Shown here: positions 5,022 to 47,200 of the stretch, piece by piece
Layout of the letters: the number at the start of each line of letters is the position of its first letter
Position numbering within the stretch: the first letter of the stretch is position 1
IMG/VR virus record: IMGVR_UViG_3300045988_165974
Span: 1 to 64,000 of that record
Direction: 5' to 3' (one strand)
Source of the DNA: a virus
Length of the DNA stretch: 64,000 bases
Translations under genes and position numbers: made by a program
Notes under the pieces: generated by a model
Seen by the model: the letters and a program-made list of their open reading frames with translations, nothing else
Told to the model about the DNA's origin: nothing
Database searches by the model: none

Positions 5022-8000
5022 TTATGAATTTAATATACTCCAATATTTAGAGTTTCTTATATCTTTATCATCTGATTTAAATTTTGTAAAGTTAATTAAA
5101 ACTCCTCCTCCTGATATGTAATATTTAAATGCCGTTTTATAAGCCGATAAACTTCCATGATTATATGCCCATTTATAACTTTGAGTAAATGACCAACTCG
5201 TTCCATATCCTGAACCCCATGATAAAACATATATATCACTTCTAATAGGATTTCCAAAAATCTTTTCTGCATTAGAGTCAGAATAAGTTGACATATATAT
5301 ATCCATATCTGACATTCCAACCCCACAATCGTTGACTGTAAATATTCCGTTACAAGTTACAGATTTTCCATGTCCATCGACAATTTTTTTCCCTTTTAAT
5401 TTTGGTACATATACTTTCGTACCGTAAGGAACATTTAGCATTCCACAAGTTTTTCCGAGGTTTAATGGAATACTACAACCACTAGAACCGTCTCCACCAT
5501 AACTCGTACATCTTGCATTTTGGAATCTATAAATATAACTCTTGCCATCAATTGTTCCTGTTTCATTAAAACAATTCTTATATTGTTCTTTAGAATCTCC
5601 TTTTGTATTATCGCTTGGAATATCACTTATCTTTTTATCTGCTTTAATTAACTCTTCTAATCTAAAGAAAAACCATTGAGAATTTGTCTTTCTTTTTCTT
5701 TTTTGAATTCCTGATGAATACCCTATTGCTTCTGCAATATACCCATCTCCCATATATATAGCAGTATGGTGAGTATCACAGGTAAACATATTATTCTTTG
5801 TTAATTTAACATCATCGTTTGCAAACATAACAATATCTCCAGGTAATGCATTTTCAAATTTTGTATCTACATATCTCCAAGCTCTAGCATTATGTTCCTT
5901 AGCAGCATCTTGAATTGTTCCTCCAGCACATGATAGTCCTTTCATGAAATCAAGTCCTGCTGCTTGATAACAACAACCTACAAAGGAACTACAATCAAAT
6001 CCCCATTTTCCAACTCCTGGTTGTTTATATGTTTTCCTTTTCTTTTGAGAACGAATAGTTTCATAAGAACTTTTGATAACTTGTTTTTTATTATAGTCGA
6101 CAGTTCTATTGTATTGAGAATACCAAGCCTTACCATCAATACATAACTGGACAATTTCTTCTGCTCTTGCTACGATTTTTTGTCTCATTACACTTAATTT
6201 ACTGTTTTCATCATCTTCTATTGGGTCTTCTGGTTCTTCTGATACTTTATTTAAAACATCTAAGACATAACTATTTATATTATTTCTTAAAATCTTATAT
6301 CCATTTTCAGTAAGTAAATATCCATTTCTTGAATATGTAGTATTTAACAATTTGTCAATTGTTAATCCTGCTGAAACATTAACTGTTTTAATTGATTTTT
6401 CAGTACAATATTTTTCAATTTCGTCATTAAAATTAACTATATTTGAATTGGTTGTAATATAGTCATATATATCATTTTTATAAGTTATTGCGACAGGCAA
6501 TTCTTTTATGACTATAATGTCTTTAGAAGGATATTTAATAAGCAATTTATCTAATAAAGATTTATAATATAAAATTCCTAAACTTGTTAAATCATTTATT
6601 CCTAGCATTGTGAGAACGCAAGTTGGGTTAGAAGGGAATGTATCTATAATATTGTGTTCAGAAAAGTAATTTGCATTAATTTTACTTTTGGCATATACAC
6701 TTAAATCATCTAAAAAATGACTTTCTTTCATGTGTTCTATTCTATCGTCTCCAATAAGAAGAGAGCCTTTTATGTTCTCGTATTTTAAAGAAACTTCCTT
6801 TTGAGTTACAACAACTAAACAGCTAGCTACTATTTTTGTATTTTCAGTTGAAACAACATTTATTTTACAAGTTCCATTTGAAACTCCTGTAACAAGTCCT
6901 TCCGAGCTGACTGTGGCTATCTTAGTATCTGTTGAATAATAAGATAAGTTTTGATTTGTGGCATTTGTAGGAACAACACTTGCCACAAGATAACGAGTTT
7001 CATTTTTATCTAATAGTAAATCTTTTGTATTTAATCTTATTCCAGTAACTTGAACATCTTTAGTTTCGTCATAATCTCCAACAGTAACAATACATGAGGC
7101 AGACTTATTAAATTCTTTTGAAACAGCACTTATAACACATTTTCCATAATCTAAGCCTGTTACTTTTCCTCCTTCGACAACGGCAACTCTTTCATTACTA
7201 GACATCCAAAATACTTCATCGAGTTCAGGATTTGGAGGGACTATTGTCGCAGTAAGAGTATAAGATTCATCTGAATCTAAATTTAATTCTGTTTTATCTA
7301 ATGTAATACTTCTAATGTATTTTGTATCCGTAAGCTCTGGGGGATTTTTTGCCACATCTAAATCTATATCTGAAATTAAATCTGTACTTACTTTATTGTA
7401 TTTTTGATTATTCCATAGCCATTTATTTGTATTTATAATTTTTTTATTATTCTTTGCCTCTCTTAAAACATCTGAAATAAGCTTAGAGCTATCTTTATTT
7501 GTTTTCTTATTTGAAAAAGTTAGACTTAATGAATTGTCTTTATAGTTTTTTTGCCAACCAACTAAATATAAATAAGTTTCAACTTTTGTTTCTTTATCAT
7601 ATAAGGCAACTATATCTCCTAATCCTATTCTTCCATTCCAATTTCTTCTAAATCTATTCTCTATTAATCTATTTGTGAAATCTATTGAATCAATTGTAAA
7701 TTCTGTTGTAGGACGGCTTTTGAGCTTTAATTGTTGTCTACCTGTTTTTATAAGTTCATTTGCATCAATAAATGAATCATCTGAATAAGTATCGCAATAG
7801 ACATACTCTTTTAATTCATTTAACAAATCTTGTGTAAATAATAAATTTCCTTTTTCATCTGTAGAAGTTTCTCTTCTTAAAAGTATATTTAATTTATCTA
7901 TGTCATTAGATAGATTACTGTATTCTAGTTCTAATTGAGCTATTTCTACTGATAATTGAGCCTGTTCATCTTTAAGTATTTGTATCTGATTTTCATAAGA

Positions 8001-28749: not shown

Positions 28750-28950
28750 ATTTCCGTTACTTAAAACTTATAAAAAGTTCTAAATTTATTTTTCTTTTCA
28801 CTCTATCTTATATTGCCAAAGCTACTTTAGTAATTGATAGTCCAAGAACGTAAATTCCCCATCAACGAGTGGGTACATATTATAAATATCTTTTAATGTG
28901 ATAGTCCATAATTTCTTAAATTAAGACTTGCATTTAAATCTCTATCTATT
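28750..28950 (-). ncRNA. candidate TnpB omega/reRNA (3' end of tnpB plus downstream 146 nt)
   Basis: By analogy with IS200/IS605 TnpB loci, the guide RNA overlaps the 3' end of tnpB and the right end. The region contains hairpin-prone GTACCCACTCGTTGATGGGGAATTTAC. Boundaries are not determined. Confidence 0.35.
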
Positions 28951-30020
28951 TCTAATCCACAACTACATTTATAAACTCTATCTGATAATTTTAAGTCTTT
29001 CTTAATGTTTCCACAACTACTACATATTTTACTTGATGGATAATATTTATCAACTTGTATGAATTTAATATCATTCCATTCGCATTTATATTTCATTTGT
29101 CTTATAAATTCACATAGGTTCTGTTGTTGAATAGCTTTAGATAAATGTTTATTTTTCATCATATTAATTATACTTAAATCTTCCATTACTACCTTACATG
29201 GTTTGGTTTTCACTATTTGAGTAGTAACTTTATGAGTATAATCAAGTCTTATATTTTTTAATTTACGATAAAGTTTCTTGAGTCTAATTTCTAACTTTTT
29301 AATATTATTAGTTTTTAAGTAACGTCCTCCTTTCTTATTTTTTAAATATTTTTTACTTATTTGTCTTTGTAACCTTTTTAACTTCTTTTCTAGTTTTTTA
29401 ACAGTATGAGTTTTATTTATATTTTTAAACTTCATATTATTACTAAGTATTGCTAAATCTTTTACTCCTAAATCAATTCCTAATACTTTTTGTGTAAGTT
29501 CGTCTACTTCTTTTTCTACTTCTAATCCAAATGTTAAAATCCAACATCTGCCATTGTAATTTACATACGGATTTTTAAAAGAATTTATTTTGGTAAAATC
29601 AATTTTATAGTTAGATTTATATTTTACTTTTCCTATTTTTTCTAAATTAACTACATTCTTTTCATAAAATTTTATTTTATCATATCTACTATAAAAACTT
29701 AATTTTGTTTTTTTCTTACTTTTAAATTTAGGTAGATTAGATTTCTGTTTGTAAAAATTTGAATATGCTTTATCTAAATTCCTTAAAGACTCTTTCAAAG
29801 TCGCATTTGATATTTCATATAACCATTGGTTTTCTTTTTTATAAATAGTTAACATTCTCCCTAATTCTGTACAAGAATATTTCTTTTTCTCATTTTTATA
29901 TAATTCATTGTTGAGATTTAATGCCCAATTATAGACATATCTTTGACATCCAATATGCTTATAAAATAAAGTTTCTTGCTCTTTTGTTGGATATAATCTA
30001 ATTTTGAATCCTTTTATCAT
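28893..30020 (-). CDS. tnpB: TnpB (IS200/IS605-family OrfB, RuvC-like RNA-guided nuclease)
   Basis: N-terminal FKIRLYPTKEQ is typical of OrfB. RuvC triad candidates are GIDLGVKD, VVMEDL and EIDRDLNASLN. Zinc finger is CSSCG...CSCG. 375 aa. Confidence 0.85.
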   Translation of the reverse strand: MIKGFKIRLYPTKEQETLFYKHIGCQRYVYNWALNLNNELYKNEKKKYSCTELGRMLTIYKKENQWLYEISNATLKESLRNLDKAYSNFYKQKSNLPKFKSKKKTKLSFYSRYDKIKFYEKNVVNLEKIGKVKYKSNYKIDFTKINSFKNPYVNYNGRCWILTFGLEVEKEVDELTQKVLGIDLGVKDLAILSNNMKFKNINKTHTVKKLEKKLKRLQRQISKKYLKNKKGGRYLKTNNIKKLEIRLKKLYRKLKNIRLDYTHKVTTQIVKTKPCKVVMEDLSIINMMKNKHLSKAIQQQNLCEFIRQMKYKCEWNDIKFIQVDKYYPSSKICSSCGNIKKDLKLSDRVYKCSCGLEIDRDLNASLNLRNYGLSH

Positions 30021-42476: not shown

Positions 42477-43991
42477 TTATACAGTTATGCAAGAATATCT
42501 TTCTTGATTTACTGCTTCCATCATTAATTCATACCCTGTTTTACCTGTTAATATTATTTCAAATGTAGATGGTGAAAATCCACTTACATATGAAATTCTT
42601 CCACTTCCTAGCATTGGAATATTATTTTGTCTTGCATCGACATTCCAATATATTAAATGTGGTATTTCATATCCATGTGATTGCCATTTTTTAGCTATTG
42701 ATTCCATTAATGTTTCATGTGAGCTATATTTTTGTTCACTTCTACTACTTCTCCAGCTCCAACAATTGAATTCATCAACTCCATTGTCAAATTCCATATC
42801 TGAAATTATAGCAATATTTTGTGGCAAATCTTCTTGAGATAAATTATTTTTTAATGCAGTATTTAATACTAAATCAAATACAGATTCAATATTTGTATTT
42901 TCACATAAATTAGTATCGTATATTCTTCTAACTTTATCTACAAAGTCAATTCCTTCAACTTCTACTAATCTAGCCTTTCTACTAAAACTTATGTAATGGT
43001 CTTTAAATGGACCTTTATTTCTTTCTGCACAATAAATTCCAAGTGAAATTGCTACATTTATTGGAGTCCCCCACATAGAACCTGATGTATCTACAACAGG
43101 TAATAAACTACAAGATTTCCCATTAAAGTAATCTTTTAAATTATCCCAATATTTATTTACAACATTTCTTTCAGTAGTTGAAGTTGAGAAACTATGTCTT
43201 AGTCCAATAGCTTTTTCTACGACTTCATAAGGATATAATGTAGCTGCATTTACAGTAGTCTTATCACTATTCATAAAAGCACTATATCTTTCTTCACAAT
43301 GTCTTTCAAAAGCTTTTCTATATTTAAGTCCTGCTTTACTTGGAAGTTTATCAAATTCTATTTCATGCCAATTATTAGAACTCATTTGTGTTTCAACTAA
43401 TCTTATATGATTTCTTAATTTCACTAATGTTTTTCTATATTTTTTAGCATTCATATTCAACTTTTTAGCAAAATATTTAGCTTTAAGTTTAGTATTAACA
43501 CTACTTGCTCCAAGTGAAGGCATCCACTTAGCTAATAAAGATATTGGTTTATTATTGTTCATATCTTTAAGGTCTGTTTCTAATTGATTTTTAACAATAG
43601 ATAAAACTTCTTTTTCGAACTTAGAACCTTTATATCCTAATTCTAATAAATCGTCCCATCTCCCAAACTCTGCAAAATAAATTAAATTCTTTTTTAATGC
43701 TTTAGAATTATTTTTTTCTAACCATTTTGTTATAACTCTAAATAATCTTCTTTCACCTTGTCCTCCTCGGACATCTCTAAAATAAAATAATAATTTCATT
43801 GATATTAAAGGATTTTCTTTATATGCTTTTTTAAATTGTAAAATTACATCTTCTTCACTACGATTTCTCATAGCTCCCCCAAAAGCGAAAAAATCTAAAC
43901 AATTACTAAAAGTAGTAACATGAGTAGTAGCTCCGTTTTCAGTTAAAGTATAATTTTCTTCTTCTTTTAAATTTCTTAAAAGTTTATTCAT
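42477..43991 (-). CDS. Ro60/TROVE-like RNA-binding protein with C-terminal vWA domain (DUF2828-type architecture)
   Basis: The N-terminus TLTENGATTHVTTFSNCLDFFAFGGAMR...LFYFRDVRGGQGERRLF has the TROVE/DUF2828-like pattern. The C-terminal vWA carries the MIDAS motif LLPVVDTSGSMWG. 504 aa. Confidence 0.6.
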   Translation of the reverse strand: MNKLLRNLKEEENYTLTENGATTHVTTFSNCLDFFAFGGAMRNRSEEDVILQFKKAYKENPLISMKLLFYFRDVRGGQGERRLFRVITKWLEKNNSKALKKNLIYFAEFGRWDDLLELGYKGSKFEKEVLSIVKNQLETDLKDMNNNKPISLLAKWMPSLGASSVNTKLKAKYFAKKLNMNAKKYRKTLVKLRNHIRLVETQMSSNNWHEIEFDKLPSKAGLKYRKAFERHCEERYSAFMNSDKTTVNAATLYPYEVVEKAIGLRHSFSTSTTERNVVNKYWDNLKDYFNGKSCSLLPVVDTSGSMWGTPINVAISLGIYCAERNKGPFKDHYISFSRKARLVEVEGIDFVDKVRRIYDTNLCENTNIESVFDLVLNTALKNNLSQEDLPQNIAIISDMEFDNGVDEFNCWSWRSSRSEQKYSSHETLMESIAKKWQSHGYEIPHLIYWNVDARQNNIPMLGSGRISYVSGFSPSTFEIILTGKTGYELMMEAVNQERYSCITV

Positions 43992-44132: not shown

Positions 44133-44453
44133 ATAAAAATTTCTAGCTAGAAAATAATTAAAATTAATTAGATTAAAATTCATTATACTTGGTTAACTCC
44201 CTGATTTCTTTTAGTTGTGTATCAGGGGAAAACAACAAGTAATTACTATATTAACTTAATAGGATATTATACTTCCGACATTCTTATTAATCGCTATCGG
44301 ATGTGCGATTTATTTTGTTTGCAAACATCTTTAGTGTAGTTCCCGTAAAAAACTTACTTGCTATAAAAAAAACTTTCAGAAATCACTACACATGACAGAT
44401 TATGTAGGTGGGGTCTGTCTCCATACACCATACAAACGAGATGATTTTTTCTT

Positions 44454-44678: not shown

Positions 44679-44777
44679 GATATTAGAGTCTAGCATCAAA
44701 ATACTAGGCTTAATCATAACAATAATTTTTAATCAAGACTCTATTTAATACTCGTTTTTAACAGAAACGTAATTAAT

Positions 44778-44797
44778 AAATTGCTGTTAGAGTCTTT
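44778..44797 (-). repeat. island box, copy 9 (55 nt downstream of the iscB stop)
   Basis: The minus strand reads AAAGACTCTAACAGCAATTT. Confidence 0.55.
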
Positions 44798-44851
44798 TTA
44801 TAAATATTTAGCCAGAAAACCCATTCCCTTTAGGTGATGGGATGAATGGCG

Positions 44852-46114
44852 TTAAATTGCTACTGTCTGTACCATTTGTGATGTTCTTGCAGTGACTCGC
44901 TTACAGTTACTTAACTTTGGCGTTTTAAAACCTCTTGGCATTGCTGAAAAAACAATCTTATTCCCATCAATGTCCATAAGAATTGCATATCCTGTAAACA
45001 TTCTTCCCTTAATAAAGTATTCCTTGCCAAAGTATTTTACTTTGTCATATTTTCTAAAACCGTATATTTTACCAGTTGTAATAGGCTGTTCTGAACGAAC
45101 ACCTTTTGTTTTTCGAAAATCACCATCAGAAACACATTTCTTTTTGTAAAGATTACTCCTTACATAAAAAGCATTCCCTTGTGTTGATATAGTACAAGCA
45201 TCATAATAATGTTTTTTGTCTATCCCTAAATGTAAACGATTAGTCTTTGTCACATATCCAAAAGTTTCAATAGCATTTGGATAGAATCTGAAAAGCTGCT
45301 TACGGATAGAATTCATTTGCGTAGCATATTTAAGATTACCCTTAACTTTACCGCTTAATTTAGGGTTAATCTTCTCACTATGTAAATCTTTATGACAGGT
45401 GTGACATAAAGTAATTAAATTACTTTCTTCGTCAGAACCACCTTGACTACGAAATACAATATGATGAACTTCTAATTTGCTATCCTTATGCTTGCCTTTA
45501 CAATATTGACAAGTATAGTTATCTCTATTAAGTACCATTGCTTTTGTATTTTCAAATCCATAGTTAACACCTTTCTGATACCCCCAATGTCTAACCTTGG
45601 AATTTGCAAGTATTGGATTTTTCATTAAATGCATATCAAACTTCCCTGTTTCAAATACTAAAGTTGTAATTGGTAAAATAGATTTAATATATTCTATTTC
45701 CTTTACATGACTATGAAGTTTGCTCTGCATTGTAGGACTAAATCTATCCTTTCTAATAGAATTTGCACGATTTAACCATCTTGCTTTTCTATAACGAGTT
45801 TTACGATTTCGTCTGTTTCTACGATACTTTGCTCTTTGTGTCATTTTGTTAGTAATGTCGTTTCTTACAACAATTTCCGACATATAAACAATATTTCCTT
45901 TTTCATCTGATACTGCTGTTCCTATTGTTCCACTACCTGTATCTACACCTAAAATTAAATCTTGAGTGTAGTTTGTACTGTCATACAATAGTTTAATTGT
46001 AAACGGACAACGACTAACAACTTTAGCTTTTCTATCTTTTAACAGATGTCTGATTTTCCCATACCTATTCGTAGGCATAAGTGGTTGTCCATCTTTGTTT
46101 AATACATATACCAT
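44852..46114 (-). CDS. iscB: IscB (OMEGA-family RNA-guided RuvC/HNH nuclease)
   Basis: PLMP domain (KDGQPLMPT). RuvC-I ILGVDTGSGTIG. Arg-rich bridge helix RAKYRRNRRNRKTRYRKARW. HNH CQYCKG...LEVHHIV...NLITLCHTCHKDLH. RuvC-III KHYYDAC. 420 aa. Confidence 0.9.
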   Translation of the reverse strand: MVYVLNKDGQPLMPTNRYGKIRHLLKDRKAKVVSRCPFTIKLLYDSTNYTQDLILGVDTGSGTIGTAVSDEKGNIVYMSEIVVRNDITNKMTQRAKYRRNRRNRKTRYRKARWLNRANSIRKDRFSPTMQSKLHSHVKEIEYIKSILPITTLVFETGKFDMHLMKNPILANSKVRHWGYQKGVNYGFENTKAMVLNRDNYTCQYCKGKHKDSKLEVHHIVFRSQGGSDEESNLITLCHTCHKDLHSEKINPKLSGKVKGNLKYATQMNSIRKQLFRFYPNAIETFGYVTKTNRLHLGIDKKHYYDACTISTQGNAFYVRSNLYKKKCVSDGDFRKTKGVRSEQPITTGKIYGFRKYDKVKYFGKEYFIKGRMFTGYAILMDIDGNKIVFSAMPRGFKTPKLSNCKRVTARTSQMVQTVAI

Positions 46115-46117
46115 AAA

Positions 46118-46435
46118 CAGATATTCCTTTCATTAAATTAAATTAATAACTCAGCTACACAAGTAACTGTTATGCGTACTATACTGTACTGTTACCATAC
46201 AGTTGTTTCGACTTCAACTCGACAATGATATAAAGGCTTTTTACATATACATTACAAGGCTGTTCTTACTCTGACCTAACTTAAATGTATACGATAGAGC
46301 AATGGTCTGTTGCGTCAACCAAAGGTATCATGACTTAAATATCGTAGCCATCATTTCTGTGGCTTAGTCTGGTGAACCATTTAACAGAAGCCCATAAGCT
46401 TTAGCTTGTGGGTAGTTCACTTAATTATTCCTGGA
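46118..46435 (-). ncRNA. candidate IscB omega RNA (structured 5' leader of iscB)
   Basis: 320 nt ORF-free region directly upstream of iscB. It has nested stems, e.g. GTGAAC...GTTCAC enclosing CCCACAAGCT-AA-AGCTTATGGG. Upstream is a possible promoter, TTGAAA-N16-TAATTA. IscB loci are known to encode their guide RNA here. Confidence 0.6.
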
Positions 46436-46497
46436 AGGAGATTTTTCAATTACAATGCACAAATATTATTAATAAAATCCTTTTTTTATCATAAACA

Positions 46498-46517
46498 TAA
46501 TTGCTGTATGTGCATTT
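46498..46517 (-). repeat. island box, copy 5 (~65 nt upstream of the candidate omega RNA)
   Basis: The minus strand reads AAATGCACATACAGCAATTA. Confidence 0.6.
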
Positions 46518-46653
46518 AATTATATTAACTTTAAGAAGGTACTTATCAAGACACTAAACATTATAAATATGAAACTTCCTAGAATTGTTCAATTTATTTT
46601 GAGGATTTGAACCTCTAAAGCACTTGTTTATTGACTTATTTACCTATTTGAAT

Positions 46654-46818: not shown

Positions 46819-46936
46819 TGCCGAAGAATAGATTTGAACTATTATCCTATAGCTTCCCTGTTTGAAATTGCTGCTTATGTATTTATCAATACATCTATTT
46901 ATTGGCTATTGCTCCAACCATTTGAGCTACTTCGGC
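46819..46936 (-). ncRNA. tRNA-like gene with perfect cloverleaf stems but a 51-nt anticodon loop (box copy 2 inside)
   Basis: GCCGAAG-TA-GCTC-AAATGGTTG-GAGC-A-ATAGC-[51 nt, 46854-46904]-GCTAT-AGGAT-AATAG-TTCAAAT-CTATT-CTTCGGC-A. The loop contains the hairpin ATGTATT-GAT-AAATACAT + AAGCAGCAAT. Confidence 0.6.
46865..46884 (-). repeat. island box, copy 2
   Basis: The minus strand reads AAATACATAAGCAGCAATTT. Confidence 0.55.
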
Positions 46937-47181: not shown

Positions 47182-47200
47182 AATTGCTGTGAGTGCATTT
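47182..47200 (-). repeat. island box, copy 1 (5 nt after the HU-like gene stop)
   Basis: The minus strand reads AAATGCACTCACAGCAATT. Confidence 0.6.

Follow-up and report, generated by a model that had tools for sequence, protein, structure and literature searches.

The sequence analyzed here, referred to as the window, comprises 64,000 nucleotides from a virus (positions 1 to 64,000 of the IMG/VR record IMGVR_UViG_3300045988_165974) and represents a segment of a tailed-phage genome, which encodes a portal protein, a tape measure protein, a tail protein and an endolysin and carries almost all genes on the minus strand. Between 47.3 and 41.9 kb it contains a tRNA island, in which five tRNA genes were recognized by ARAGORN and nine by Rfam. 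Two of the nine Rfam matches have lengths of 118 and 137 nt. Within this island lie an open reading frame (ORF) for the RNA-guided endonuclease IscB, a putative omega RNA directly upstream of it and, on either side, copies of a short repeated motif, termed box in the following. Our analysis indicates that omega RNA and iscB very probably form a 1619-bp non-autonomous IscB insertion sequence (IS) of the IS200/IS605 type, which was inserted 5′ of an ATAAA pentanucleotide between box units owned by this gut phage. The coordinates of all features are collected in Table 1.

An earlier reading of the locus, based on the sequence only, had ascribed to the ORF all hallmarks of IscB, and this assignment was borne out. 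The ORF matched the NCBIfam model NF040563 (“RNA-guided endonuclease IscB”) with 338 bits (cutoff 175) and the Pfam domains RRXRR (178 bits, residues 2-172) and HNH (49 bits, residues 202-247). The encoded protein shows the domain order PLMP domain followed by RuvC I-II-III, which is interrupted by an Arg-rich bridge helix and an inserted HNH domain, and its C-terminal part is a putative region for interaction with the target-adjacent motif (TAM). The motifs were located at residues 11-14 (PLMP), D58 (RuvC-I), about 93-116 (Arg-rich helix), E155 (RuvC-II) and H302/D305 (RuvC-III), and the HNH domain contains H217, H218 and N232 as well as the zinc cysteines C202/C205 (CxxC 202-205) and C237/C240. 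In a phmmer search of the PDB, IscB structures ranked first (OgeuIscB, 7UTN and 7XHT, E about 6e-43), and the catalytic residues aligned and were conserved. OgeuIscB has the same domain order but is larger (496 aa), and the structural match consists of two stretches of the query, residues 1-117 and 106-310. D58 and the HH pair correspond to residues mutated in the published dIscB (Meers et al., 10.1101/2023.03.14.532601). In comparison with five relatives, the ratio of non-synonymous to synonymous substitutions (dN/dS) was 0.10-0.27, indicating that iscB is under purifying selection. The predicted identity of the ORF as an IscB with all catalytic residues was thus confirmed, and by analogy to its characterized relatives the protein would perform RNA-guided, TAM-dependent cleavage of double-stranded DNA.

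The proposal of an omega RNA upstream of iscB was checked with the Rfam covariance model. The 306 nt between the iscB ORF and position 46420 contain no ORF, and the HEARO model (RF02033) gave a full-length match from 46420 to 46207 with 103.9 bits (gathering score 83, E = 2.6e-20), all helices being kept. For 33 non-identical family members, RNAalifold predicted 60 base pairs, half of which (30/60) showed compensatory changes, and the window copy keeps the pairs. In contrast to HEARO, the family adds about 90 nt of conserved hairpins between the end of the Rfam model and the iscB start. Extra conserved hairpins of this kind beyond the HEARO model are general for omega RNAs (Meers et al., 10.1101/2023.03.14.532601). 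These matches confirmed the prediction of a cognate omega RNA located directly upstream of iscB on the same strand.

The ends of the mobile unit were deduced from its family. Relatives of the IscB protein with 72-87% identity are common; ten were present in IMG/VR contigs and others in metagenomes, mostly from human gut (80 of 159 metagenome matches were kept), and a few close relatives occurred in metagenome-assembled genomes of the gut Firmicutes Anaerostipes, Blautia, Lachnospira and Erysipelotrichaceae. A blastn comparison of the window region with 80 or more related loci (designated by L and a number) yielded a single aligned block from 46421/46420 to 44797 with unrelated flanks. The evidence on the boundaries comes from about 25 independent insertions of the IS family plus one pair of an empty and a filled site. 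In all 27 distinct flank combinations, the element starts with GTGAACTACC, preceded by a variable base, and finishes with ...WATAAA, beyond which the sequences are unrelated. The empty site was found at one phage locus in L250 and L252 and reads ...GCGAACTTATA/ATAAATAAGAAC... (the slash marks the insertion point). The filled version of the same locus, ...GCGAACTTATA(GTGAAC...ATATTT)ATAAATAAGAAC..., is present in L251, L253, L257 and L258; in short form, the empty site is ...CTTATA/ATAAATAAG and the filled one ...CTTATA(GTGAAC..ATATTT)ATAAATAAG. Since ATAAA is kept in the empty site, this pair indicates a scarless insertion directly 5′ of a pre-existing ATAAA, and it fixes both ends of the IS to the base. 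Insertions of the family thus show neither a target duplication nor terminal inverted repeats and have the conserved pentanucleotide adjacent to them. In the window, the element points in the same direction as the transcription of the island. Both ends carry a subterminal hairpin of the type CCCAnnAnC-TAAA-GnnnATGGG, and the stem of the right-end hairpin (46391-46412) covaries across the IscB family.

Two further observations concern the family. In L009 (1661-1716) we found a 48-nt mini-derivative, in which the start of the right end is fused to the tail of the left end and followed by ATAAA; the same site holds a full-length element in L002 and L038. This mini-element is the product of recombination between the two similar end hairpins. 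In the metagenome contigs L048, L049, L066, L074 and L095 the upstream flank of one site is joined to the downstream flank of another, reflecting either recombination between IS copies or chimeric assembly across the repeat.

In agreement with the sequence-only reading, no TnpA was detected by tblastn in the window and none inside the 1619-bp unit. Seven relatives (L006, L040, L056, L079, L087, L091, L096) possess a gene for a Y1 TnpA of 134 aa (Pfam Y1_Tnp, 121 bits) directly past iscB, which identifies the window copy as a non-autonomous family member. A second IS copy or a solo end was not found in the window, and within the phage lineage the IS was present in just one sampled genome. These three properties would suit an inactive relic persisting in the phage. 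We consider this very unlikely given the full-length ORF with all catalytic residues and its dN/dS of 0.10-0.27, the omega RNA with its family pairs kept, and the intact TAM and hairpins at both ends. We regard the element as an ordinary, apparently functional non-autonomous IscB insertion sequence.

In IscB elements, the right end delimits the HEARO/omega RNA, and the TAM is found immediately next to the left end; only about 1.5% of the iscB genes have tnpA in their neighbourhood, and the elements share the orientation of the gene upstream (Meers et al., 10.1101/2023.03.14.532601). The window element shares with the ISGst IscB element of G. stearothermophilus (Meers et al. 2023) an AT-rich TAM at one end, the lack of target-site duplications, the usual absence of tnpA and the co-orientation with upstream transcription. 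The TAM itself differs, being ATAAA/TTTAT in the window, TTCAT for GstIscB and NWRRNA for OgeuIscB; TTTAT has been published as a TAM for a related IS605-family element from Geobacillus (Meers et al., 10.1101/2023.03.14.532601). Unlike the ISGst and OgeuIscB systems, the window element resides in a phage tRNA island. Other phages of gut or clostridial hosts, namely Clostridium phage c-st, Clostridioides phage pCD1602_4 and human faecal phage contigs, also encode IscB homologues, but these share at most 41% identity with the window IscB, belong to another subfamily and are filed as “HNH endonuclease” without IscB annotation. The window contributes a phage-borne IscB that is compact (420 aa) and apparently intact, together with a defined omega RNA, a guide position and a simple inferred TAM (ATAAA), and the family offers a natural series of full element, TnpA-bearing relatives, empty site and 48-nt mini-derivative for a single IS. 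Such material is of use in annotation and perhaps in the mining of tools; the concept as such is already known.

The homology within the family begins abruptly at G46420, and the upstream flanks are unlike one another at every insertion site. The guide, previously expected near 46432-46450, was relocated to 46436-46421, where the 16-nt size is the value from published IscB systems and the position of the 5′ end is deduced from it. Allowing up to two mismatches, no second match of the guide was found in the window or in a 21-kb stretch of the sister phage L025, a close relative without the IS that is described below. The guide 16-mer gave nine matches in IMG/VR, and as all of them lack the flanking context, they represent chance matches. 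There was no sign of retargeting of the guide. A sigma-70-like promoter match upstream of box unit 5, which stems from a consensus scan only, is a candidate source of the guide-supplying transcript.

The position of the guide bears on the question, raised before, whether the phage employs IscB against competitors. A domesticated IscB might serve as a weapon or regulator directed at competing phages, the host or the phage’s own box sites, and both the intact iscB under purifying selection and the presence of several OMEGA nucleases in the phage lineage would be in line with such a role. It is nevertheless extremely improbable, because the guide is simply the flank of the right end, a feature common to all relatives, and, apart from the chance matches mentioned, corresponds to this flank only, and because transposon ends and TAM are intact, as is typical of a mobile copy. 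We obtained no evidence for a use against competitors.

Judging from the family, the mobile element most likely operates as follows. Read-through or local transcription would generate an RNA whose first ~16 nt (TTCCAGGAATAATTAA, from the phage spacer) serve as guide and whose next ~300 nt form the scaffold binding IscB. Excision of the element by TnpA acting in trans, or the arrival of an uninterrupted site with a co-infecting genome, would recreate the joint of TTCCAGGAATAATTAA and ATAAA, which after excision should read ...AATAATTAA/ATAAAAAGAC. IscB would then cut this joint, and recombinational repair from an IS-bearing copy would restore or spread the element. The expected role of IscB would be to cut its own empty site and thereby to favour retention of the element.

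Table 1. Features of the IscB locus. Positions refer to the window unless stated otherwise.
Feature	Position	Strand	Remarks
Mobile unit (right end, omega RNA, iscB, left end)	44802..46420	-	1619 bp; non-autonomous IS200/IS605-type element (very probable)
TAM ATAAA (TTTAT from the left end)	44797..44801	-	pre-existing phage sequence; from family and empty site
Right-end subterminal hairpin	46391..46412	-	CCCACAAGC-TAAA-GCTTATGGG; also first omega RNA hairpin
Left-end subterminal hairpin	44820..44841	-	CCCATCACC-TAAA-GGGAATGGG; same type as right-end hairpin
Predicted omega RNA scaffold	46115..46420	-	Rfam HEARO part 46420-46207, then 3′ hairpins and iscB ribosome-binding site to 46115
Predicted guide segment	46421..46436	-	5′-TTCCAGGAATAATTAA-3′; phage spacer DNA just outside the right end of the IS
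iscB coding sequence	44852..46114	-	420 aa; NCBIfam NF040563, Pfam RRXRR and HNH
Sigma-70-like promoter match	46522..46549	-	TTGATA-16-TAATAT; upstream of unit 5; consensus scan only
Box unit 5	46454..46516	-	5′ strand AATGCACA (46516-46509), core ACAGCAAT (46507-46500), 3′ strand TGTGCATT (46461-46454)
Box unit 6	44735..44796	-	5′ strand AAGACTCTA (44796-44788), core ACAGCAAT (44787-44780), 3′ strand TAGAGTCTT (44743-44735)
Segment absent from sister phages	44779..46498	.	1720 bp; from alignment with L025
tRNA-like genes with expanded anticodon loop	46936-46819, 46811-46695, 42330-42194	-	insert of ~50-65 nt, hairpin plus ACAGCAAT
Counterparts of the insert tRNA genes	6600-6717, 7365-7490, 7718-7853 (in L176)		variant core in 7718-7853

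The box motif (minus strand ...CACwwACAGCAATT) is present in eight copies between 42262 and 47195, all along the direction of transcription. In the whole window it had 10 matches compared to 2.2 expected, a number reached in none of 100 shuffles. The earlier observation that two boxes of the same orientation flank omega RNA and iscB was verified: cores with the sequence ACAGCAATT are located at 46507-46499 and 44787-44779, 1720 nt apart, the second one 65 nt past the iscB stop codon with its stem strand starting 56 nt past the stop. The IS occupies the 38-nt spacer between box units 5 and 6, starting 78 nt downstream of the left core and stopping 14 nt before the right core, and the ATAAA preceding unit 6 is the TAM used by the IS. 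The bracket formed by the two boxes proved to be a real indel boundary (see below). The idea that the IscB module was inserted at or bounded by the box was not supported: the ends of the IS lie inside the bracket, and ACAGCAAT was found near the ends of other family insertions in none of the 27 flank combinations, which shows that the bracket is not the boundary of the transposon. The boxes bracketing the IS belong to the phage, not to the transposon. There was no support either for a box-supplied target, as the guide is formed by 16 nt of the spacer upstream of the IS and the TAM is the ATAAA just 5′ of the stem of unit 6, which contributes at most an A-rich lead-in and not the core. As a caution, direct repeats bracketing a mobile element need not bound it, and it is the comparison of independent insertions that allows the transposon to be told apart from the repeats of its host.

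The closest IMG/VR relative of the window is L025, a phage sequence of 63.6 kb that shares 94-99% identity with the window across 20 kb. Inspection of box sites for presence or absence of the module, as suggested by the sequence-only reading, revealed that precisely the DNA from one box core to the other is missing in sister phages. The missing segment comprises the rest of unit 5, the guide spacer, the IS with its TAM, the 5′ strand of unit 6 and a single 9-nt core. In L025, a single box joins the left side of one core to the right side of the other, and four further contigs from other samples (L267-L270) have an identical junction. The fused box consists of the 5′ strand of unit 5 (AATGCACA) and the 3′ strand of unit 6 (TAGAGTCTT), which cannot pair, whereas units 5 (AATGCACA...TGTGCATT) and 6 (AAGACTCTA...TAGAGTCTT) are both complete in the window. 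The non-pairing stem halves suggest that the fused form is derived and originated by deletion between the 9-nt direct repeats. From ~46650 to ~44140, the identity between the window and the IS-less relatives falls from 97% to 76%, compared to 99-100% outside, and across this block the IS-less relatives hardly differ from one another (about 100% identity). The raised divergence indicates that the two forms are alleles of a mosaic block and do not reflect a recent single event. The five IS-less contigs count as one lineage. Most likely, the fused box of the sister phages arose by deletion between the box cores inside this divergent mosaic block; the inferred polarity of the indel is based on the stem-pairing argument and on counting the relatives as one lineage. 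Such a fusion of units 5 and 6 at their shared core would have removed the target of IscB, and the sister phages would then be immune to the IscB of the window. Two side observations were made in this region: a tRNA-Gln(ttg) gene of the sister phages (L025 12896-12975) has no counterpart in the window at 44143/44139, and window positions 44531-44232, which are just 76-78% identical to the sister phages, are part of the mosaic block.

Alternatively, the 1.72-kb module could be a box-bounded cassette, which entered a single box by box-specific recombination or by box-to-box exchange via a circular intermediate and moved the IscB unit together with a 78-nt leader and one box copy. The difference from the five sister contigs, which corresponds exactly to the segment between two 9-nt direct repeats, would be explained in this way, the IS-less form is the commoner one among the sampled relatives, and the mosaic nature of the surrounding block shows that some recombinational import occurred. 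We nevertheless rate this alternative as unlikely, since the bracket encloses the family ends, which recur unchanged at about 25 unrelated, box-free sites, and since the stem halves of the fused box in the sister phages are not complementary while both window units are intact. Moreover, no recombinase is associated with the box, and the indels between relatives in the L144/L164/L170 group of phages do not end at boxes, showing that box-mediated exchange is not a general rule.

Several points weigh against our overall explanation of the element and of its absence from the sister phages. No IS-free relative that retains both units 5 and 6 intact was found (an 18-mer of the unit-5 3′ strand gave unrelated matches only). 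The sole close relatives (L025, L266-L270) are all without the IS and have one common junction, so that the frequencies leave room for an insertion of the 1720 bp by box-to-box recombination. A source of TnpA was not found either, and as long as the element is not excised, its own genome offers the nuclease no target.

The more interesting part of the locus may be the box motif itself and the tRNA genes with box-expanded anticodon loops. The cores on the minus strand of the window (47201-42254) are located at 47190, 46754, 46663, 46507, 44787, 42463 and 42270, with a variant at 46878. In all seven copies, the 6-9 nt before ACAGCAAT have a perfect complement, which is located 44-108 nt downstream in the five intergenic copies and 7-14 nt upstream in the copies within tRNA genes; at random positions, a complement of at least 7 nt occurred in 8.8%. 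The stem sequences vary between copies (AATGCACT, AAGACACT, AATGCACA, AAGACTCTA, AATACAC and others), with pairing kept. The box thus has the form of a covarying stem of 7-9 bp, and the loop closed by this stem has the invariant ACAGCAAT at its start. The same organization was detected in unrelated gut phages from IMG/VR (L144/L164/L170, L166, L176, L184), where multi-copy loci were informative and, among the matches listed for a 14-mer box search, most were single chance matches. In L144/L164/L170, the units occupy spaces between the genes of an array of 20 tRNAs, with their starts 3 nt past a CCA end, and L166 contains three box units in tandem and a fourth copy in hairpin form. In L176, the hairpin-plus-ACAGCAAT form is found inside tRNA genes of 118 and 126 nt, and a third long tRNA gene (136 nt) has the hairpin followed by the variant core ACCGCAAAT.

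No Rfam 15 family was found for the box in the island and in the box-bearing loci, even at permissive thresholds, and no description of the motif was found in the literature. From its organization we conclude that the box is a structured phage element that appears native to the tRNA island. More specifically, and only tentatively, it might represent a structured module, made of RNA (or single-stranded DNA), that belongs to phage tRNA arrays, has the invariant ACAGCAAU and is as yet undescribed. It occurs in two settings, as a stand-alone unit in tRNA spacers and as a hairpin-plus-ACAGCAAU insert of ~50-65 nt in tRNA anticodon loops, and could act as a processing signal, an intron-like signal or a binding site for a phage factor. 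The repeated core may also render the island prone to cassette loss, as may have happened with the IscB site in the sister phages.

Several known types of element were considered for the box and rejected. For HDV-like (hepatitis delta virus) or theta ribozymes, YrlA and others, Rfam scores were below noise, and with respect to a theta ribozyme the expected G1 at the tRNA 3′ end is missing and there is no HDV-like match. A part of a TnpB element was dismissed as the flanks of the TnpB gene described below have no box, and a miniature inverted-repeat transposable element with terminal inverted repeats as the stem sequences differ between copies with pairing kept. A promoter does not serve as a general explanation, given the start of the L144 units 3 nt past the tRNA CCA end. 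The PeSL elements of T4-type phages are short direct-repeat regulatory cassettes that mediate gene shuffling. They resemble the box as a short, co-oriented, repeated motif in a hyperplastic region with an indel ending in two copies. The box differs from them by its covarying stem, its invariant 8-mer and its place between or inside tRNA genes, and in the box-bearing L144 group the ends of indels do not coincide with boxes.

The tRNA genes with inserts are unchanged in the sister phages and recur in the unrelated phage L176. Whether the inserts are footprints or mini-derivatives of the IscB element had been left open by the sequence-only reading, and neither option was supported: comparison with the IS ends revealed chance matches of 7-16 nt only, the IS-less sister phages have the very same inserts, and a true mini-derivative, the 48-nt one in L009, looks quite different. 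The inserts in the tRNA genes thus appear to be unrelated to the IS. Group I introns in tRNA anticodon loops were excluded because the inserts are too short, and for an excision restoring a normal 7-nt anticodon loop no consistent boundary was found. If the insert-bearing tRNA genes were processed or spliced, this would reveal a novel aspect of tRNA biology in phages.

With respect to the phage as a whole, the window matches a portion of a 138-kb ENA metagenome contig (ERZ27229840 k119_115462) with 100% identity, and a megablast search of GenBank phages with the region gave no match. The claim that the phage carries both OMEGA nuclease classes was upheld, since besides IscB it encodes an intact-looking TnpB of 375 aa (28893-30020, minus strand) with the Pfam domains OrfB_IS605, Cas12f1-like TNB and HTH_OrfB. 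Neither a box in the flanks nor a TnpA in the neighbourhood of this ORF was found. In the sister phages, a different TnpB of 418 aa adjoins a ClpP-like gene (L025 16124-17572; L266 10915-12171), and at the corresponding position the window has 45 nt of unrelated sequence (40988-40943). The presence or absence of TnpB beside the ClpP-like gene indicates that the positions of OMEGA elements vary within the phage lineage.

Some minor observations were made in the tRNA island. It contains a gene (42477-43991, minus strand) for a 504-aa DUF2828/DUF7788 protein (PHROG 850, “RNA-binding protein”), and a box unit is located directly past its stop codon; a relationship of this protein to Ro60 was rejected, as solved structures gave no sequence matches. 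Between tRNA-Asp and tRNA-Met (42049-41995, minus strand), a single box core in antisense orientation (AATTGCTGT) immediately precedes a strong hairpin resembling a terminator (AAGAGAAGGA...TCCTTCTCTTTTTTT). This arrangement is kept in L025 and could represent a small RNA able to pair with box cores. An acceptor/T-arm-like minihelix (GAGGTC...TAGGTTCAAATCCTA..GACCTC; 47043-47002, minus strand) is found in the stretch from box unit 1 to the first tRNA-like gene, and a T-arm-like hairpin (~46600-46585) is present within the loop of unit 4.

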